DNA from: Candidatus Bathyarchaeota archaeon
Lineage (GTDB): Archaea > Thermoproteota > Bathyarchaeia > Bathyarchaeales > Bathycorpusculaceae
Direction: 5' to 3'
DNA length: 64,000 nt
NCBI GenBank assembly: GCA_963715865.1
Contig: OY970280.1
Coordinates: forward strand, 1,056,001 to 1,120,000
The notes below the pieces were generated by a model that saw only the letters and a list, made by a program, of their open reading frames with translations, ran no database searches and was not told where the DNA came from. Shown in pieces: positions 42,966-51,550 of this stretch; the first letter of the stretch is position 1; the number at the start of each line of letters is the position of its first letter. The translations under genes and the position numbers were made by a program.

Positions 42966-43634
42966 ATGACTCTTGAATCAAGCAAAATCTTAGGCTGCAT
43001 AGGCGCAATACTAATGCTAATAGGCTCATTGGTTACTAGCTATACTTTTGGCATTCTTGACCTTGTTGGTGTAATACTCGTTTTGGTTGCACTGAACGGT
43101 TTAGCGAACAATTATAAAGAAAGAGGTATATTCACTAATGCACTTTACAGTCTCGTTGCAGGCATAGTGGGCGTAGTAGGGGCAGTTGCGGCGGCTCTCT
43201 ACATAGTTTTTGACACGACCATATTAACAAGTTTACTTCAGAAGCTTTATCCGTCTTGGAATGGCAGTTGGTCAACAATTTCGTCACTTTCAGGCTTAAC
43301 GCCCAACACCTCGAACATAACCGCAAGCGACGCCATGCCTATAATAAGCGCACTATTTTTAGTGTTAGTCGTACTTTGGATTTTCACCATAATTGCAGCT
43401 TTCTTCGCTAGACGATCACTGAAAGCTCTTTCAGCCAAAGCGAGTGTAGGTTTATTCTCAACTGCTGCTCTACTGTTATTCATAGGTGCATTTCTAACAA
43501 TAATTCTCATAGGATTCCTTCTAATCTGGATCGCTGTACTGTTGATTGCGATTGCCTTTTTCCAAATAAAACCGCAGCCAGAACAACCAGTAGCAACAAT
43601 GGCTCCTCCGCCGTTAACACCAACGCCAGTCTAA
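42966..43634 (+). CDS. DUF996-like membrane protein
   Basis: MTLESSKILGCIGAILMLIG...IFTNALYS...LIAIAFFQI. Confidence 0.8.
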   Translation: MTLESSKILGCIGAILMLIGSLVTSYTFGILDLVGVILVLVALNGLANNYKERGIFTNALYSLVAGIVGVVGAVAAALYIVFDTTILTSLLQKLYPSWNGSWSTISSLSGLTPNTSNITASDAMPIISALFLVLVVLWIFTIIAAFFARRSLKALSAKASVGLFSTAALLLFIGAFLTIILIGFLLIWIAVLLIAIAFFQIKPQPEQPVATMAPPPLTPTPV

Positions 43635-44346
43635 AAACCAAACAATCTCCTTTTTTTATTTAACAATCCTACTCATTACAAATGTCATCGTCATTTTTTC
43701 TATTTTCGTGAATAAGTAAAAGTGACAGCTTCCAAGGCGCAGGGTTTGTAAATCGTAAGTTTGTTGTTTTATCGATGATTAAATTGTTTGGGTTCATTTG
43801 TTGTAAGCATGGTTTAGGGGCAGAGACGTTTGTTCGTTTTGGTAAATGCTTTGTTCAAACAATCGAGTTAAATGCGGAGGCTATGGATGTTTGTCCGTTC
43901 CTCAAAAAGTTTTGTCTAGGCAATCCCTTGGGCAAAAGGAGCTTTTACCGTTGGAAATCTGAACTTGATGAGTGGGAAGCTCAAGTTGTACCGCCTAGGT
44001 CTTGTAGTTTCTGAAAAGGAAAACAATAGTTCATCATCTTCATCATCAACAAGCAGGCATTACGACCGCCTAGACTTGTGATTTCTGAGGAAACACTAGT
44101 GTCATCATAAACAACTGGTAAATCTGGAGAACCGACAGATGCCGAGTTGTCTGGGCAAAAGGTTGCATTCGCATTTACATAAACTGACTAGTTTACCTCT
44201 CAATAAAGCAGGCAGTTAAGTCGCTGGACCAATATTTACGCCCAAGCTAAATACTCCCGTCATGTTGAAAACAATCTGCATACATCCACCAAAGAACGTT
44301 TTGGAATATCACAAGGTTGAAATTTGGGGGACGATGTTTCATTCAC

Positions 44347-44368
44347 GGGGATGATGTCGCCGTCCCAG
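44347..44368 (+). repeat. att-like copy 1 (22 bp)
   Basis: GGGGATGATGTCGCCGTCCCAG. ATTCAC upstream is shared with copy 2. Confidence 0.9.
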
Positions 44369-44538
44369 CCTTAGGGCTTACTGGTTCTTTACTGTTTACT
44401 TGTGTGTTGTCTTGGTTTGTTATCTTTTCCATGTTTATATCCCTACACCGTTATTAGGTAGCTTCTCACATAAGCTTTATCTGGGCAAATACACGGGGTA
44501 CCCTAATGGAAAAAATAGTACTGCTAAAAATTTCAACC

Positions 44539-44652
44539 ATGAAAGGCTCTCGCATAGAGAGCGTTCCTCTAAACAAACTGCGATTATTGGCTGATGACAA
44601 GCACAGGTTCTGGTCTTTAGAAGGCGATTTCTTGGTGCTTAAATCCTATTGA
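44539..44652 (+). CDS. Micro-ORF paralogue A (37 aa)
   Basis: MKGSRIESVPLNKLRLLADDKHRFWSLEGDFLVLKSY. Mostly synonymous divergence from paralogue B. N-terminal frame uncertain. Confidence 0.5.
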   Translation: MKGSRIESVPLNKLRLLADDKHRFWSLEGDFLVLKSY

Positions 44653-44808
44653 TTTTTTTATTTCGTTTAGCGTAAAAGGCATAGCTTGCCGATGCTATTT
44701 AGGCATGTTTTACATTCCTATTTTCTTCGTTCGCACTGATATGACTTTTTAGAAAAAGTGGGGAAATATATTAAAGTCTTGAGCTGTAGTATTACCTTTG
44801 GTGGTTTC

Positions 44809-45018
44809 ATGTCTGAGGGTGTTCTCCTTACGGATGAAGATAGGGCTTTACTGGTAAAGGTAAGCGGTTTACTTGAGGAAATAGTCGAAACTTTCAGCAT
44901 ACTGGAAGATAAAGAAGCTATGTCTTGCTTAAAAAAGGCTGAAGCAGATGTCAAAGCTGGAAGAGTTAGAGATTATGACGCGTTCCTCAAGGAGCTGAAA
45001 CAAACTGGCGAAATATAA
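44809..45018 (+). CDS. RelB-like antitoxin
   Basis: Acidic 69-aa protein (ILEDKEAMSCLKKAEADVKAGRV) overlapping the toxin start. Confidence 0.8.
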   Translation: MSEGVLLTDEDRALLVKVSGLLEEIVETFSILEDKEAMSCLKKAEADVKAGRVRDYDAFLKELKQTGEI

Positions 45019-45262
45019 ACTGCAGGTTACGAAAACTTTTGAAAAAGATTTTCGAAAGTTTGATACCCAAACAAAACGGAGAATAGACTCAGCGATAAGA
45101 CTGCTTGAAGCTGACCCTTATGTGGGGAAGCCTTTGAGAGGGAATCTTGCTGGTAAATGGTCGATTAGAAGCGGCGACTACAGAGTCATCTATACAATAA
45201 GCGAAAACGAGAAAATAGTGCTACTTTATGACACAAGACATAGAAAGAAAGTCTACGAATAA
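45005..45262 (+). CDS. relE: RelE/ParE-family toxin (CTG start, missing from the ORF track)
   Basis: Manual translation: (M)AKYKLQVTKTFEKDFRKFD...DPYVGKPLRGNLAGKWSIRSGDYRVIYTI...HRKKVYE. Confidence 0.9.
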   Translation: MAKYKLQVTKTFEKDFRKFDTQTKRRIDSAIRLLEADPYVGKPLRGNLAGKWSIRSGDYRVIYTISENEKIVLLYDTRHRKKVYE

Positions 45263-45276
45263 CTCAAACAGCCAAT

Positions 45277-45378
45277 TTGTGTCACGAGTGTTCCTTTGAC
45301 AAATTACGATTGTTAGCTAATGATAAACATAGGTTTTGGTCTTTAGAAGGCGATTTCTTGGTTTTGCATTCCTATTAG
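45277..45378 (+). CDS. Micro-ORF paralogue B (33 aa)
   Basis: TTG start, (M)CHECSFDKLRLLANDKHRFWSLEGDFLVLHSY, 14 nt after the relE stop. Confidence 0.5.
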   Translation: MCHECSFDKLRLLANDKHRFWSLEGDFLVLHSY

Positions 45379-45394
45379 TTTTGTCGATTTGGAG

Positions 45395-45781
45395 TTAAAC
45401 GTTTGCAATTAACCTAACCTTTGTAGGTCTATTATGATTAACTTCAACAATCCTCAGGTACGCAAGCAGAGGAGCAACATAGGATGCTTGAGAGTGCTTA
45501 CTCTTAGTTTTAGTGGTTAACCGTAGGTACTTTTCAAGTGTAAAGTCATCAACATAGGAAGTAGCTTCATGCTTTGCTCCAATCTTAACCCAACTCTTGC
45601 CCTTAAGAAACTTTGGGATTCCATTGAAGCTGTCCTTTGAAACTTCGATTTCTATAGTTTTAATAAAGAATACCACTCTATCGGCTTCTACTGATTTAAC
45701 TGTAAATGGTTTGTCGTAATAGGGAGTGCCCAATTCTAAACCTGAATGTACTTCTTTTTTTATTCTATCAAATACTGACAT
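45395..45781 (-). CDS. Hypothetical protein (island cargo)
   Basis: ATG, 128 aa, no recognised motif. Confidence 0.65.
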   Translation of the reverse strand: MSVFDRIKKEVHSGLELGTPYYDKPFTVKSVEADRVVFFIKTIEIEVSKDSFNGIPKFLKGKSWVKIGAKHEATSYVDDFTLEKYLRLTTKTKSKHSQASYVAPLLAYLRIVEVNHNRPTKVRLIANV

Positions 45782-45797
45782 ATGGCATCCAACTTTT

Positions 45798-46274
45798 CTA
45801 TGGGTTACGTTCTAATTCAGCGATAGAGGGAAGGCTCTCTCCATTTTCAAGTCTATTCATCAATCTATTGATCCTTTCCAATAGCTTCCTATGTTCGCCT
45901 CTCATGTGAATTATAATATAGACTCCGCCAATAGCACTCATAATAAATGCTATATCACCACCTAAAACACTAAGTGTATAGTAGATTGTTACAGAAACAG
46001 TGATTAACAGTATTAAACCACCCGCAGCGATTGCACTCAAGAAATTAAACCATGATTCCTCATGGCTAGCTATAATCTGAACTTTCTGAAAATCGACCTC
46101 TCGTTTGGTATCCTTTGACTTATCACAAATTGAATCAAGTTTTTCCTTGAGAGCCTTTATAGTATCTAAATCTTTGCTAATTTCCTTCACTGCCTTCTCC
46201 AAATCACTCTCAGACATGTTTACGCTATTTCTCGGTTGTTTGAATTTAAAACTTTCTTGAAAGCTTCTTTCCAA
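45798..46274 (-). CDS. Hypothetical two-TM protein with coiled coil (island cargo)
   Basis: Coiled N-terminus, two TMs. Start may be MSES. Confidence 0.65.
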   Translation of the reverse strand: MERSFQESFKFKQPRNSVNMSESDLEKAVKEISKDLDTIKALKEKLDSICDKSKDTKREVDFQKVQIIASHEESWFNFLSAIAAGGLILLITVSVTIYYTLSVLGGDIAFIMSAIGGVYIIIHMRGEHRKLLERINRLMNRLENGESLPSIAELERNP

Positions 46275-46291
46275 AAAAGGTTAACTCTGCC

Positions 46292-46367
46292 GCAATCGAC
46301 AGAGCCCTTAGGTGTGTGGGGGTTGCCTTTTAAGGAGGGGTCATCCACTGCCTGAGGTGTCGATTGC
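46292..46367. other. Long nested hairpin (candidate ncRNA or DNA structure)
   Basis: GCAATCGACA/TGTCGATTGC, CCTTAGG/CCTGAGG, GTGG/CCAC, CCTT/AAGG. Confidence 0.5.
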
Positions 46368-46610
46368 TTGTAAGAATCCCCTAAGGAGTGTGGAGTTCTG
46401 GAGTTCAGGGCATCGCTGATGTACAGTTTCGGTTTGTCGTTGCTTCTTAAGCTGGGTAATACCTATTTTGCTTAAACATATCTATTACCATGAAAAAGCT
46501 ATATTTGTCCGTCTCTTCTTTGCTGATGATGCCTCTTTCTACCTACTAAATTGTAATAATTCGTGCAAAAAAATTAATATAGCAAAAACGAAAACCGTAT
46601 GCAGTCAGTA

Positions 46611-46722
46611 GCGCGGAAGGAAAGCAGGGAGCGGGAGCAACTCGGTGGTCTTTTCCCGCACACTGGCTCCTTAACGCGGTGGCTCAGGTGCTTGCTTCCT
46701 CGTACCTACGCGTCTTCCGCGC
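46611..46722. other. GC-rich multi-stem element (candidate ncRNA)
   Basis: GCGCGGAAG/CTTCCGCGC closing stem, inner GCGGGA/TCCCGC, in AT-rich intergenic DNA. Confidence 0.45.
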
Positions 46723-47138
46723 ATTTTCTACTTAAGACGAGGGCAGTTTTAAGCTTTGCTCTCATATCGAAGTTAATTGAGAGCCTGTCAATCACTAATG
46801 AACGCGAAGATTTTGGTCGTTTTTATGTCAATTTAGTATATGGATATCAATTTCTTTGTTGGAATATACTTAGAGAATTTGATGAATGCTGTTGTTTCAA
46901 GACCACATATATATAAAACTGTTCCATGAAGAAAGACAATAGCTTTCGATTGAATTTCGCAAAAACTATGTAAAATTTACATAAAGCGAAAATTGTCGTA
47001 ATTAATTGAACGCAGACTTTTCACATAACTATCAGAGTTTTATTAGGTAACTCGATTAGTTACCTTAATCACATATCCCTGCAACAAGCCCAATACGTTA
47101 ACAATATTCATATCTAACTGGGATGCTGTATTATTCAC

Positions 47139-47167
47139 GGGGGATGATGTCGCCGTCCCAGTCTGAT
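47139..47167 (+). repeat. att-like copy 2 (29 bp, identical to copy 3)
   Basis: GGGGGATGATGTCGCCGTCCCAGTCTGAT, followed by hairpin AGCGG-TTTC-CCGCT. Confidence 0.92.
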
Positions 47168-47364
47168 AGCGGTTTCCCGCTGTTCTTATTTTCTATTTCA
47201 GTCATTTTTCAAACCTCATTGGTAGATATAATCGCAATTTGGGCTTAAAAGGCTTGCTAACGCTGAATTATAGATTGGTAGAGCAAAATTAACGTTAATA
47301 ACGTGCGCCAGAGCTTTAGTTGGTATTATATACCAGTTAAGTTAAGAAACTAACTTGGTAGTGC

Positions 47365-48300
47365 ATGGTTCAATACTCAACACAAGAAGCAGCTAAGCGA
47401 ATCGGTATTAGTTTCATTACTCTGAAGAGGTGGATTTATTCTGGTAAAATCAAGGCGGTTAAGGATGAAAGAGGATGGTGGAGAATTGACGAAGAAGAGA
47501 TTGTTCGCATAGTTACTGAGGTACGCGGTACAAGGCAAGGGCTAGCAGAGAAAATTTTAGCTCTTATTTTCTCTAAGCGAGTGGCGTATCTTAGAGAGCT
47601 TCAAGTTTGTCTTGAAGAGGATTGCTTGCATAAGGATGTGAATGCTACTCTGGCAAGTCTTTTCAATGTGGGCAAGATTGACACGAAGTCAGCTTTTGGT
47701 GATAGATGGTTTTTCCCCAAAAGTTTGACTTGGGAAAATGTCGAGCAGACTGCTAAAGAGAAATTAGAATTAATCAATTTATATGTGAGTCATCCAAGAC
47801 GTTTTGAAAAAGACAGCGTCGTCTATATGGATTATTCGGAATATCTTGTTGAGCAAGCGTTAATCACAGCTTCGTATGTTGTGGTGTCAAAGGATGCTTA
47901 CTACTTCAATGGTCGTTCATATCGGCGAAGCTTGACCGCAGGTAGACCTACCGATTTGGACTTCATTGCAAAAGTTCCTCAAAAAGAAATCTTTGTTGGT
48001 ATTCAAGTGAAAAACAAGATGCAGCACCCTTCGCTTGATGAAGTTAACTCACTTTTAGATATTTGTGGCTTCTTAGGGCTTAAACCAGTCCTTGTTGCTC
48101 GTATAATACACCCAAAGACCTATGAATTGCTTAAGGAGAATGGCGGTCGTGCATTAAGGGTTAAACGGTACTTCTTGCAGCCGCCTTTTCCGAGAGATAG
48201 GTTTCAAGATATCGTCGGTTTGGGTATTCCTTTGGGTGTCTATAATCGGGCACCTGATTTTTTGGTAAATATGTTCAAGAGTTTACCTGCGGCTCTTTAG
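47365..48300 (+). CDS. Excisionase/MerR-like HTH fused to a PD-(D/E)XK-like domain
   Basis: YSTQEAAKRIGISFITLKRWIYSGKI...GWWRI, and PTDLDFIA...GIQVKN. Confidence 0.7.
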   Translation: MVQYSTQEAAKRIGISFITLKRWIYSGKIKAVKDERGWWRIDEEEIVRIVTEVRGTRQGLAEKILALIFSKRVAYLRELQVCLEEDCLHKDVNATLASLFNVGKIDTKSAFGDRWFFPKSLTWENVEQTAKEKLELINLYVSHPRRFEKDSVVYMDYSEYLVEQALITASYVVVSKDAYYFNGRSYRRSLTAGRPTDLDFIAKVPQKEIFVGIQVKNKMQHPSLDEVNSLLDICGFLGLKPVLVARIIHPKTYELLKENGGRALRVKRYFLQPPFPRDRFQDIVGLGIPLGVYNRAPDFLVNMFKSLPAAL

Positions 48301-48757
48301 CTGTTTACTGTATCATTTCTAAGCAGTAGAATTAAAATACAAAAGTTCTATTATTATCTCGCTTTTCTGTTTGTTACTAAAAAATAATTTTTTGAACTGT
48401 TTTAGCTTCACCGATATTAAAACACTGTATTGGTAGAGAGCAGTGCTCCTAACAGAGTTTTGCTCCGTAAAAAAATCTGAAAATGGATTGAAAACAATTG
48501 AAAGAAAAAAATATAGCTATAATTTTAAGAATGTTTCCAGAACGATGGAAGCAAGTAAATATCCCATAGAAAAAGCTCTGCCATCGAATCGCCTTACCCC
48601 GACTCTCATCATAAAGTGAAACAAATCTGCAAGGCTTCGTTGGTCGAGAGCAAAGAGCCTTTGATGAAATTTTTAATATCCAGCTTCGCCATTGAAAAGT
48701 TGAAAAGTGAAACTTAAAATCCTGAGCTATCGCTCTTTACTGAGTCTCGACCGCGCG

Positions 48758-49213
48758 CTAAAACTCCTCTCCGCTGCTTTTATGGAACTTCCCGTCTTTA
48801 CAAAGGTGCATGAGAGGAAAATCTTTTGGAACCTCTTTTCTGCAAACTGGACAATTTACATAAACAGGATGTTTCCAACCAACCGGGAAACCCCTCGAAT
48901 CTCTTTCTATTTTTTCAACAAATCTAATTCGTTCGTTTGTTGTGAGATTGCTTGAATTACGGTTCTTCACTTCTTCTTCGTGGTCAGCCATAATATGGTC
49001 TAAAGCTATGTTTTCAGCAAGCTCTCTCCCATACTTACGACCAAACATTTCACCGACAAGTTTTACTGTATTCGAATCATGTCTATATTGCCTGTGAGAT
49101 TGTGAATAGCTTTTGCTCGGTTCGTCAATATAACTGTGAATATCATCACCTCTAATACCATACCGCTTTAACGAATGCTGGCAATGTTCTTCGTGTTGAG
49201 GTACCCCAGACAC
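48758..49213 (-). CDS. His-rich hypothetical protein with C-terminal CxxC
   Basis: HEEHC...IHSYID...HRQYRH...LDHIMAD, CPVC. Confidence 0.65.
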   Translation of the reverse strand: MSGVPQHEEHCQHSLKRYGIRGDDIHSYIDEPSKSYSQSHRQYRHDSNTVKLVGEMFGRKYGRELAENIALDHIMADHEEEVKNRNSSNLTTNERIRFVEKIERDSRGFPVGWKHPVYVNCPVCRKEVPKDFPLMHLCKDGKFHKSSGEEF

Positions 49214-49598
49214 CTCTTAATAAAAAATAAAATTGGTATTGTTTTCTTTATAAGATTTGTCACATCTCATTTGCGAGCTATCTTTATTTTCCCTGTGTGT
49301 GTGAGCGCCAAAACATAGGTATTTGAATAATACAAATATGACAGCATTAACCAAACTTGTGTGTGTTGGCGAAAAAACTATGGTACAAAAATAATAAAAG
49401 CGTAGTTTGGTTGTGTGTGGTTGGACTATGGGTATAAAATTAATATCAGTTTTTAAAAAGTTTCACAAATGCTGGAAGGCGCAAAGTCCTAGAAGCATTG
49501 TGATATGTTCATCTTTAGACCCATGTTTCGCTTTTGCAGAATTTCAAACTGTTTTTTTCTCTGACTTGCAAAACTGAAAACAAAAAAAGGAGAACTTG

Positions 49599-49931
49599 CT
49601 ACTTGCAAGTTTTCTGAATCTCACTATTCAGCAATTTCAGCAACTTCGTCACGTCAGCATTATTACTGTAGTCCTTAGTTGCATCCTTGAAATTTTCCAA
49701 AGACGACTCGTTCAGCTTCTCCTCTTTACCTGCTTTTATTCCCGTTATAGTCAATCCTGTCAACAGCTCGTAGCGTAGTTCCACGAGTAGGCAAACCTTG
49801 TTTGATAGACTAAGTTTCGCATCGGCTTCAATGAAATTTTTTGCTGTGTCAACGGTCAAAAGTTTTCCGTGCTTCTCTTGTTCTTCCAGAACTTTTCTCA
49901 CACAGCCCAACTTATCAACCATAATAACCAC
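49599..49931 (-). CDS. Hypothetical protein
   Basis: 110-aa ORF with charged helical composition. Confidence 0.5.
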   Translation of the reverse strand: MVIMVDKLGCVRKVLEEQEKHGKLLTVDTAKNFIEADAKLSLSNKVCLLVELRYELLTGLTITGIKAGKEEKLNESSLENFKDATKDYSNNADVTKLLKLLNSEIQKTCK

Positions 49932-50412
49932 AAGCCATTATTGCGGTCAATACTAAAAGATGTTTCACTTAAGAAATGAATCCCGCATCTTTTTCTTCCT
50001 CTATGTCCAATTCCAAATTTAAAATAACCAGTATTCCAAACAACATCAGCGGTCCCCAAACAAAGAAGAAGAATAAGGATATCGCTGAACCATCAGCTAA
50101 TTGTCCAAAGACGAGAACAAATGGTGTTAAAAACCTTAGAAACAGTGTAAGCCATCAAAGTACCACTTCTGCATAGCATAGCGTCAAAACAAGGCTTTTT
50201 ATGAATTTACTGCGAGTTTTCATTGTCGCCTACCGCAATTTTTTTCAGTGGACACACTCCGTTTTAAGGTCTTGATTAGTTCAAGAACTCCTGCCGTGCA
50301 GCCGTCATTAAGTCGTTCAGTCACTTGCTCATCTACTTAGCGTGCGCAAGAAAGTGCGGAAAAGTAATTCTTTTCATTTTCATTTGTTTAAGTAAAATTA
50401 CTAACTGAACTC

Positions 50413-50811
50413 TTACTTAGCCCTCGCTATGAGCAAAAAGCCGACTAACGTAACCCCAAATATAACCGCAATCCATGCTATTGCATTATAGTACCACCAC
50501 ACATTCAAATGAGGAAACGTTAGAAAATCTCCAATGAAGGTTATTACACTGTTAATCAACAATATTCCAAAAGCAAGCACTGTAACTAAAGCCGCAAGTT
50601 TTGTCCACCTATGTTTACGCCGCATAATAGCCAAGCCGAGCGTTATGAACGCAATGATAACCCACAGAAAAGCTAAAGAATATATCCAAGCCGTGGCATC
50701 CCAATAACTAAAAATCGGATTAACAATAAACAGTATTGTAGCTATCAGCAATAATGACGCGCCAATTAATTGGAGCTTAGTCTTTTTACTGACCCTTAAC
50801 TCCATAGGCAT
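50413..50811 (-). CDS. Four-TM membrane protein (degenerate zinc ribbon immediately upstream)
   Basis: Four hydrophobic segments. In-frame upstream DFCPKCG. Confidence 0.65.
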   Translation of the reverse strand: MPMELRVSKKTKLQLIGASLLLIATILFIVNPIFSYWDATAWIYSLAFLWVIIAFITLGLAIMRRKHRWTKLAALVTVLAFGILLINSVITFIGDFLTFPHLNVWWYYNAIAWIAVIFGVTLVGFLLIARAK

Positions 50812-50974
50812 CTCAGCACCGCATTTTGGGCAAAAATCCGCTTTATCATCATTAACATCTTGACCCAGACTTAGGACAAACTCTAATGTTTTAGACTCCA
50901 GTCGGCGTTTCTCGTTGTGAGTATCTTGTATTTAGCTTTTTAAAATTTGTGCACTAAAGTTTAATCTGATTCCT

Positions 50975-51286
50975 CTACTTTCGCTTTCTGAATAGCTTGA
51001 CTCCATCTATTTCTGTGACGTACTCGAAGCCTTGCTCAATGAGATTCTGAGCTTCTTGCAATGTCTTCGCAGTAGCAGAATGATATTCATCGCCTTCAAT
51101 TTCAATTAGTTGCGTATATCTTAAAGTTGTCCGCAAGTCTTTATGCCCAAGAAGTCTTTTAACATGAAGCAAATCTTTTGTTCTATGATACTCCATTGTC
51201 GCCTTGAAGTGTCTGAAGTCATACAATCGAATGCTCTTTAAGCTCATGTCACCGTATGCTTTCTTGTTCATGTTCCAACATGTCAA
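50975..51286 (-). pseudogene. Tyrosine recombinase/integrase C-terminal fragment
   Basis: LYDFRH, LLGH, TTLRY (catalytic Tyr), tail EYVTEIDGVKLFRKRK. N-terminal two-thirds absent. Confidence 0.88.
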
Positions 51287-51321
51287 GAATACTTTATTTG
51301 TGGGGGACGATGCTACATTGT

Positions 51322-51387
51322 GGGGGATGATGTCGCCGTCCCAGTCTGATCGGGAAAGATGAAGAATTCGAGATTTAGACAGACCCC
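51322..51387 (+). ncRNA. Box C/D guide sRNA (D' guide fits 23S rRNA Gm2251); also att copy 3
   Basis: GGGG(G)-ATGATGT(C)-CGCCGTCCCAGT-CTGA(D')-TCGGGAAAG-ATGAAGA(C')-ATTCGAGATTTAGA-CAGA(D)-CCCC. Terminal 4-bp stem. TATA-like TTTATTT about 27 bp upstream. Confidence 0.75.
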
Positions 51388-51550
51388 AAATAATTTTAAA
51401 AATTCATTGGTAGATGCAATATATCTCTTAGCAACGGGAACGGATGTGATTTAGTCGTGATCTTCGGTGAAAACGTGTTAAGCGGAGTTGTTGCGGTAGA
51501 GAAACATGCGAATCTTTCAACTAAAGAAGTGAATAGAAACAACACCTATA

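Follow-up and report, generated by a model that had tools for sequence, protein, structure and literature searches.

A 66-nt box C/D sRNA gene lies on the plus strand at positions 51322-51387 of the window, that is, of the whole 64,000-nt stretch of DNA that was analysed. The layout that the first-pass annotation had described at these positions was matched base for base (Table 1). The C box AUGAUGU agrees with RUGAUGA at six of seven positions and the D box CAGA agrees with CUGA at three of four, and both GA dinucleotides are retained despite these departures from the consensus. The D' box is an exact CUGA and the C' box AUGAAGA is a match at five of six positions (UGAAGA), both being conserved over the 126 homologous sequences described below. 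When both strands of the 2.35-Mb genome were searched with a relaxed pattern (RUGAUGN, 10-14 nt, CNGA, 2-14 nt, UGANGA, 10-14 nt, and CNGA, together with a 4-bp terminal stem), the layout was found at two loci, this one and G000:C1:601613-601676, and six second-order Markov null genomes gave no match. No Rfam family matched in the window at the gathering thresholds. The 66-nt RNA showed no excess of fold stability over its shuffles (z 0.16); low fold stability against shuffles is expected for C/D sRNAs and is uninformative.

Table 1. Positions in the window of the parts of the sRNA gene, its upstream elements, and the features of the inserted DNA
Feature	Position	Strand	Remarks
Terminal stem, 5' strand GGGG	51322-51325	+	
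3-nt bulge GAU	51326-51328	+	A51327 and U51328 double as the first two C-box bases
C box AUGAUGU	51327-51333	+	
D' guide CGCCGUCCCAGU	51334-51345	+	12 nt
D' box CUGA	51346-51349	+	
Loop UCGGGAAAG	51350-51358	+	
C' box AUGAAGA	51359-51365	+	
D guide AUUCGAGAUUUAGA	51366-51379	+	14 nt
D box CAGA	51380-51383	+	
Terminal stem, 3' strand CCCC	51384-51387	+	
TATA-like box CTTTATTT	51292-51299	+	Centre about 26 nt 5' of the sRNA start
Upstream motif TGGGGGACGATGC	51301-51313	+	Consensus CTGGGAYGRTG; conserved; follows the TATA-like box
att core copy C (attR)	51322-51344	+	23 nt common to copies A and B; the 5' end of the sRNA
att core copy B	47139-47161	+	5' 23 nt of the sRNA; runs through UCUGAU, then diverges
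att core copy A	44346-44368	+	Typical attL junction, core followed by CCTTAGGGC
Tyrosine integrase, C-terminal fragment	50975-51286	-	103 aa; PF00589, E 2.7e-4, profile positions 118-168 of 172
Decayed inserted mobile DNA	43637-51321		About 7.7 kb; between the membrane-protein gene (42966-43634) and the sRNA

The guide upstream of the D' box is complementary to the P-loop of the host 23S rRNA. Against the P-loop segment GCUGGGGCGGCA (LSU 2361-2372) it forms nine Watson-Crick and two G-U pairs and leaves one terminal mismatch, so that 11 of its 12 positions are paired (LSU 2361-2371) and the mismatch lies at the C-box end. In this register the fifth nucleotide upstream of D' faces host G2365, which is G2251 of E. 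coli in the P-loop of helix 80; the numbering was anchored on E. coli rrlH, where CUGGGGCGG stands at 2248-2256. This is the target, Gm2251, that had been predicted from the sequence, and the G-U pair expected at 2253 is there too, but it is not the single G-U pair that had been described because two are present, at the equivalents of 2247 and 2253. The ribose at E. coli G2251 is methylated in other organisms, and yeast snR67 is the known guide for the equivalent 25S Gm2619. For three other archaea, Dennis et al. (2015, PMC4644070) have predicted that a C/D guide directs methylation of the same nucleotide. The score of the pairing between the D' guide and the P-loop was not significant by itself, since 20 of 60 shuffled guides scored equally well or better against about 7 kb of rRNA and tRNA, and therefore the case for a P-loop guide rests on conservation. 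The other matches of the D' guide, including one to the 5' end of tRNA-Cys with eight Watson-Crick and three G-U pairs, were rejected because they were weaker and lacked a conserved rationale. Judged on pairing and conservation, the sRNA gene would most likely direct methylation of P-loop G2365.

Full-length homologues were found by BLAST in all 24 genomes of the genus that were sampled, and weaker matches were found in other families of the order. In the alignments of these homologues the boxes and the D' guide are invariant and the loops, the D guides, and the flanks are variable; conservation of the boxes in relatives, the absence of which would have counted against the first-pass annotation, is thus borne out, in the genome scans as well, and it extends to the D' guide. 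Of the 81 genomes of the genus, 71 contain an 18-mer across the C box and the guide; among the 47 of high quality the number is 46. The reversed control gave no match. A 23-mer was detected in 164 of the 301 genomes in the class, with a concentration in the order to which the window belongs, and its control gave one match; the sRNA family occurs in most families of that order. Because these and the other conservation queries contained the guide itself, the sole unbiased search was the one with a guide-free pattern that was anchored on the boxes and the other guide and left all 13 positions after AUGANG free. This pattern gave 20 matches from 15 genera, and 19 of the 20 carry the guide core GCCGUCCCAG with loops that differ freely. 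The one variant core, GCCGCUCCAG, shifts the wobble from G2253 to G2252 and keeps all the pairs with GGGG. Among named genome records, pattern matches come almost entirely from Bathyarchaeia, and one of the genomes of the genus is the record for Candidatus Bathycorpusculum acidaminoxidans. A canonical C/D sRNA from outside Bathyarchaeia (L107, in a record named Candidatus Terraquivivens tikiterensis) has the same D' core and an unrelated D guide. Its D' core could be due to shared descent or to convergence on the P-loop.

Constraint at the level of the RNA was examined in 126 distinct homologous sequences with the same layout. Position 5 of the C box and position 2 of the D box are U-A in 116 of them, G-C in three, and U-U, the canonical form, in two. 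Position 7 of the C box is paired with the base before D in 117 of the 126 (U-A 93, U-G 16, C-G 4, A-U 3, and G-C 1). From the covariation of U5 with A2 and of U7 with its partner it follows that the unusual boxes AUGAUGU and CAGA compensate each other. The outer stem pair is G-C in 105 sequences, A-U in three, U-A in two, and G-U in two, and it is a non-pair in 14. This covariation supports the predicted terminal stem and k-turn, and the resulting k-turn would have a Watson-Crick third pair in place of the canonical U-U. Every one of the 126 sequences has a D' guide of 12 nt; D guides of 12 nt occur in 84, of 11 nt in 27, and of 14 nt in five, so that the 14 nt of the window copy is atypical. 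These data give the first well-supported C/D sRNA family for Bathyarchaeia, a class that is very abundant and nearly uncultured.

The second guide, to which the first-pass annotation could assign no target, now has a candidate, which we propose tentatively. The D guide of the window copy forms 11 contiguous pairs with SSU 1425-1436 (UCUAAGUUUCGU) on the 3' strand of helix 44, with its fifth nucleotide on A1429, a match that is not significant by itself because nine of 60 shuffles score as well. A variant of the D guide in one relative, G018, pairs with the same site at 12 of 12 positions and none of 60 shuffles was as good, and two of the differences between the window and G018 guides preserve the pairing. 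The site is conserved in four relatives, and five related D guides, which are non-independent, map to it; shuffled guides never share a site. On this sequence evidence SSU A1429 is a tentative methylation target of the D guide of the window copy. Other families share a conserved D guide, NCU(C/U)AUGACGG(A/G), which pairs with LSU 2707-2716 in helix 93 and has its fifth nucleotide on U2710, the equivalent of E. coli U2593. Most genomes of the genus have one gene only, and its D guide is AT-rich and fast-changing. The anti-P-loop guide is retained while its partner guide turns over.

The genome has the genes for the RNP proteins, and all three score above the curated cut-offs (fibrillarin 324 bits, Nop5 243 bits, and L7Ae 99 bits), those for Nop5 and fibrillarin being adjacent. 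The 23S rRNA gene, which matches the archaeal LSU model with 2809 bits, is single-copy (G000:C1:560559-563585), as are the genes for 16S (1565827-1567321) and 5S rRNA (1261300-1261419), and the three are unlinked and hundreds of kb apart. In the mechanism that we propose, the RNA would fold with a terminal k-turn (C/D) and an internal k-loop (C'/D'), as its sequence and covariation suggest, and would assemble with L7Ae, Nop5, and fibrillarin. The invariant 12-nt D' guide would then pair with the P-loop and fibrillarin would 2'-O-methylate host G2365. That the RNA is mainly an rRNA-folding chaperone, which brings the P-loop together with a second site and does not methylate efficiently, appears very improbable. 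It would suit such a role that the peptidyl-transferase region (helix 80 and helix 93) is the target of both guides in the other families, and chaperone roles of dual and orphan guides have been discussed (PMC6009581), but a spacing of exactly 12 nt and an intact D' box are requirements of catalysis and not of pairing alone, and within the genus the first guide has been kept and the second has altered or lost its target.

With the archaeal sRNAs for G2251 (PMC4644070) the window sRNA shares the class of RNP, the order of the boxes, the 12-nt spacing, and the predicted P-loop ribose. It differs from them in its host lineage, the mesophilic and uncultured Bathyarchaeia, in having the P-loop guide at D' and not at D, and in its D box CAGA, the A of which is Watson-Crick paired to U5 of the C box where the canonical pair is U-U. 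A similar D guide, AGCCGUUCCAGU, occurs in Rfam sR22 (RF01275), and both the score of sR22 (15.8 against 40 bits) and that of snoPyro_CD (13.9 against 45 bits) were below the thresholds. The best Rfam score was that of snR67 (RF01177), 19.1 bits against a gathering threshold of 55 bits with an E value of 0.06, and it is driven by the shared anti-P-loop guide upstream of D', which has the same target nucleotide. Since snR67 is eukaryotic and longer, with an unrelated second guide, the likeness may be due to convergence on a universal target rather than to shared descent. By its sequence the window sRNA would work like snR67, sR22, and snoPyro_CD and be a member of none of these families. In bacteria Gm2251 is made by a protein-only methyltransferase, RlmB, a stand-alone SPOUT enzyme that modifies the same nucleotide with no guide RNA.

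The gene is also the end point of inserted DNA. A 47-nt segment is present three times in the window in direct orientation, at 44325, 47118, and 51301, and of these three copies the last one alone extends into the full gene. The exact shared core is the first 23 nt of the sRNA, and in 12 genomes the block of identity stops after CCCAG. The core spans the stem strand, the C box, and most of the D' guide, and it holds the dyad GGGAUG-N7-CGUCCC, from which a hairpin is predicted; arm, spacer, and arm is the layout of classical integrase core sites. Just upstream of the sRNA lies the C-terminal part of a tyrosine integrase, which is 37-39% identical to residues 200 to 314, approximately, of the intact 315-aa integrases in relatives and which, by this homology, is a remnant of the int gene of the element. 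In copy B (47139-47232) the D' box (UCUGAU) is followed by a GC hairpin and then a T-rich tract, unlike the usual attL junction, and 27 nt downstream are similar to the flank of the full gene (47206-47232 and 51394-51420). The inner insertion has as cargo a 311-aa protein with an N-terminal HTH_17 (excisionase-like) domain (47365-48300, plus strand) and a DUF6915 protein (48758-49213, minus strand). A tRNA gene as the att site was ruled out because ARAGORN found no tRNA gene in the window.

Peat metagenome contigs from two runs (depth 72.8 and 172.9) join 43636 to 51321, the bases between the two sides being unread. These contigs are about 94% identical to the window and therefore come from related strains and not from the same strain; the joined contigs represent the empty site in such strains.

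A TATA-like box is found at equal spacing upstream of homologues of the sRNA. In the window it lies within the inserted DNA, from which we infer that the sRNA promoter would be supplied by the element. The motif CTGGGAYGRTG, between this box and the sRNA, repeats the 5' end of the sRNA in direct orientation and is the reverse complement of the core of the D' guide. It was also observed upstream of the homologues L003-L021 and L157-L184, in element-borne promoters and in apparently native ones. The motif may serve as an additional site for the integrase or belong to the promoter, and is better described as a repeat of the left arm of the core. That it is a transcribed mimic of the target of the guide is unlikely because the spacing of the TATA-like box puts the start of transcription at the 5' end of the sRNA.

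Since the conserved block is an att core with a dyad and a 7-nt spacer, and a related motif is repeated upstream in presumably untranscribed DNA, the 5' half could have been conserved as a DNA site for a recombinase or as a promoter-proximal element and its complementarity to the P-loop could be incidental, as the non-significant pairing score by itself would allow. We consider this highly unlikely. The same guide is found in complete C/D layouts in families and genomes in which no element was seen and in an Aigarchaeota-like MAG. The box pairs covary, which is a constraint at the RNA level, and the single guide variant moves the wobble and keeps all the GGGG pairs. In addition, the register falls exactly on a ribose with established methylation in other organisms (see also PMC4644070). 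Conservation of the 5' half as part of a guide RNA is the reading that we retain.

The arrangement in which direct repeats of a part of the sRNA flank inserted DNA and the complete gene stands at one end only was found in the window, in 11 relatives, and on metagenome contigs. Junctions of the copy A type were present in these 11 relatives and on 94 metagenome contigs, several of which have a complete attL-Rep-Int-sRNA unit of 5.5-9.2 kb. In G009 and G007 the gene for an intact 315-aa integrase (PF00589, 30.9 bits) begins some 55-65 nt away from the 5' end of the sRNA, and a partial copy that continues as CCTTAGGGCAAAG lies 3.9-4.7 kb away. This unit of intact integrase at about 55-65 nt, sRNA, and attL is present in G009, G007, G054, G057, G064, and G072, with attL 3.9-5.9 kb away, and decayed units are present in G044, G084, G018, and G022; the junction proximal to int, core followed by CCTTAGGG, is the presumed attP. 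Between the att copies the cargo of G007 consists of a 330-aa Rep-like protein and a HEPN protein, and that of G009 is an unrelated 383-aa protein with no Rep-like gene. The elements are roughly 4-9 kb in size and most carry a Rep-like gene. Two to three core copies on the same strand, 1-22 kb apart, were found in 17 of 71 genomes of the genus. The gene cluster on the left flank (a kinase, two PadR-like genes, and a membrane protein) is conserved, and its distance from the sRNA is 1.2-7.6 kb across species. The suggestion in the first-pass annotation that a guide for so conserved a site would be a stable integration target agrees with these findings, for element junctions beside a tyrosine integrase carry repeats of the first 23 nt of the gene both in the window and in many relatives.

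The minus-strand frame is open through att, but an integrase of the SSV type, which is split by integration, was rejected because the relatives carry an unsplit 315-aa int with its start codon outside the core. In addition, neither copy A nor copy B has an Int(N) of useful length next to it.

The second full copy in this genome, at G000:C1:601613-601676 on the plus strand, raises the question of which of the two is the working P-loop guide. Its 5' half through D' is identical to that of the window copy, and its D guide, GCUUAUGACGGA, is of the helix 93 type that pairs with LSU 2707-2716. No integrase was found near it. Its immediate downstream neighbours share 70-75% identity with genes situated about 4.3-7 kb from the sRNA in a genome of another family. 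It could be argued that the 601-kb copy is the working guide and the window copy a redundant or decaying duplicate, an att scar, because the two full copies have an identical 5' half, the D guide of the 601-kb copy is the one conserved in other families with its pairing to helix 93, and the window copy has a 14-nt, fast-evolving D guide and stands behind decayed mobile DNA with a truncated integrase. We regard this as unlikely since the four boxes, the stem, and a well-spaced TATA-like box are all intact in the window copy and its D guide keeps 11 contiguous pairs with the SSU site of the related guides. Moreover, the gene beside the same flanking cluster is the only copy in most genomes of the genus, and therefore that locus is the working gene there. 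The idea that the window gene is a genus-wide paralogue of an older gene was dropped, as most genomes of the genus have a single gene.

The explanation that we favor, and that is likely in our judgment, is that 51322-51387 is a functional C/D sRNA gene that guides modification of the P-loop and that its 5' 23 nt are at the same time the attB core of integrase elements. On insertion upstream of it, the elements would reconstitute the gene from a 5' part and a promoter that they carry themselves, and the window copy would be such an attR with two decayed insertions and an integrase stump behind it. It is quite likely, too, that this guide RNA gene is the dedicated attachment site of small integrative plasmid-like elements in Bathyarchaeia, and it would be the first attB of its kind. 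The proposed elements have a tyrosine integrase, a Rep-like protein in most cases, and variable cargo. Their 23-nt core would be held near-invariant by the universal P-loop, and it has a dyad of arm, 7-bp spacer, and arm as in the anticodon stem-loops of tRNAs.

Targets of integrases known previously are the genes for tRNA, tmRNA, and 4.5S RNA. An archaeal sRNA or snoRNA gene as attB was not found in our literature searches, and use of a C/D sRNA gene in this role appears to be undescribed; the attB classes in a 2021 review are tRNA genes, a few protein genes, and intergenic sites only (PMC8371274). The nearest likeness is to the pTN3-like integrases (PMC8371274), tyrosine recombinases that use the 5' portion of a gene for a small stable RNA as att. 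There too the element is located upstream, and the rebuilt gene is read from an element-borne promoter beside int. The elements described here differ from these in that the target is a C/D sRNA gene and not a tRNA gene and the integrase is unsplit by integration. The att role is the more unusual point, the guide RNA itself being an expected kind of gene, and it extends the choice by integrases of small, slow-evolving RNA genes with a dyad to guide RNA genes. A defined 23-nt attB together with a compact 315-aa integrase could be developed into a genetic tool for this lineage, for which there is none so far.

Junctions that resemble attP were found on metagenome contigs (L192/L227, L243, and L193) and are indistinguishable from those of tandem arrays; no terminal repeats were found, and the attP-type junction gave no match in IMG/VR. 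L192:859 and L227:3612, from two samples, have in common an identical stretch of 1542 nt that runs without interruption over a full-length integrase and the region upstream of it, the 23-nt core, and the element arm CCTTAGGGCAAAG. Such an attP-like arrangement could be a free circle or a tandem array. In G075 two core copies on the same strand (G075:C27:37813 and 59861; L177 and L178) are 22 kb apart, a spacing that suggests a much larger insertion at the same site.
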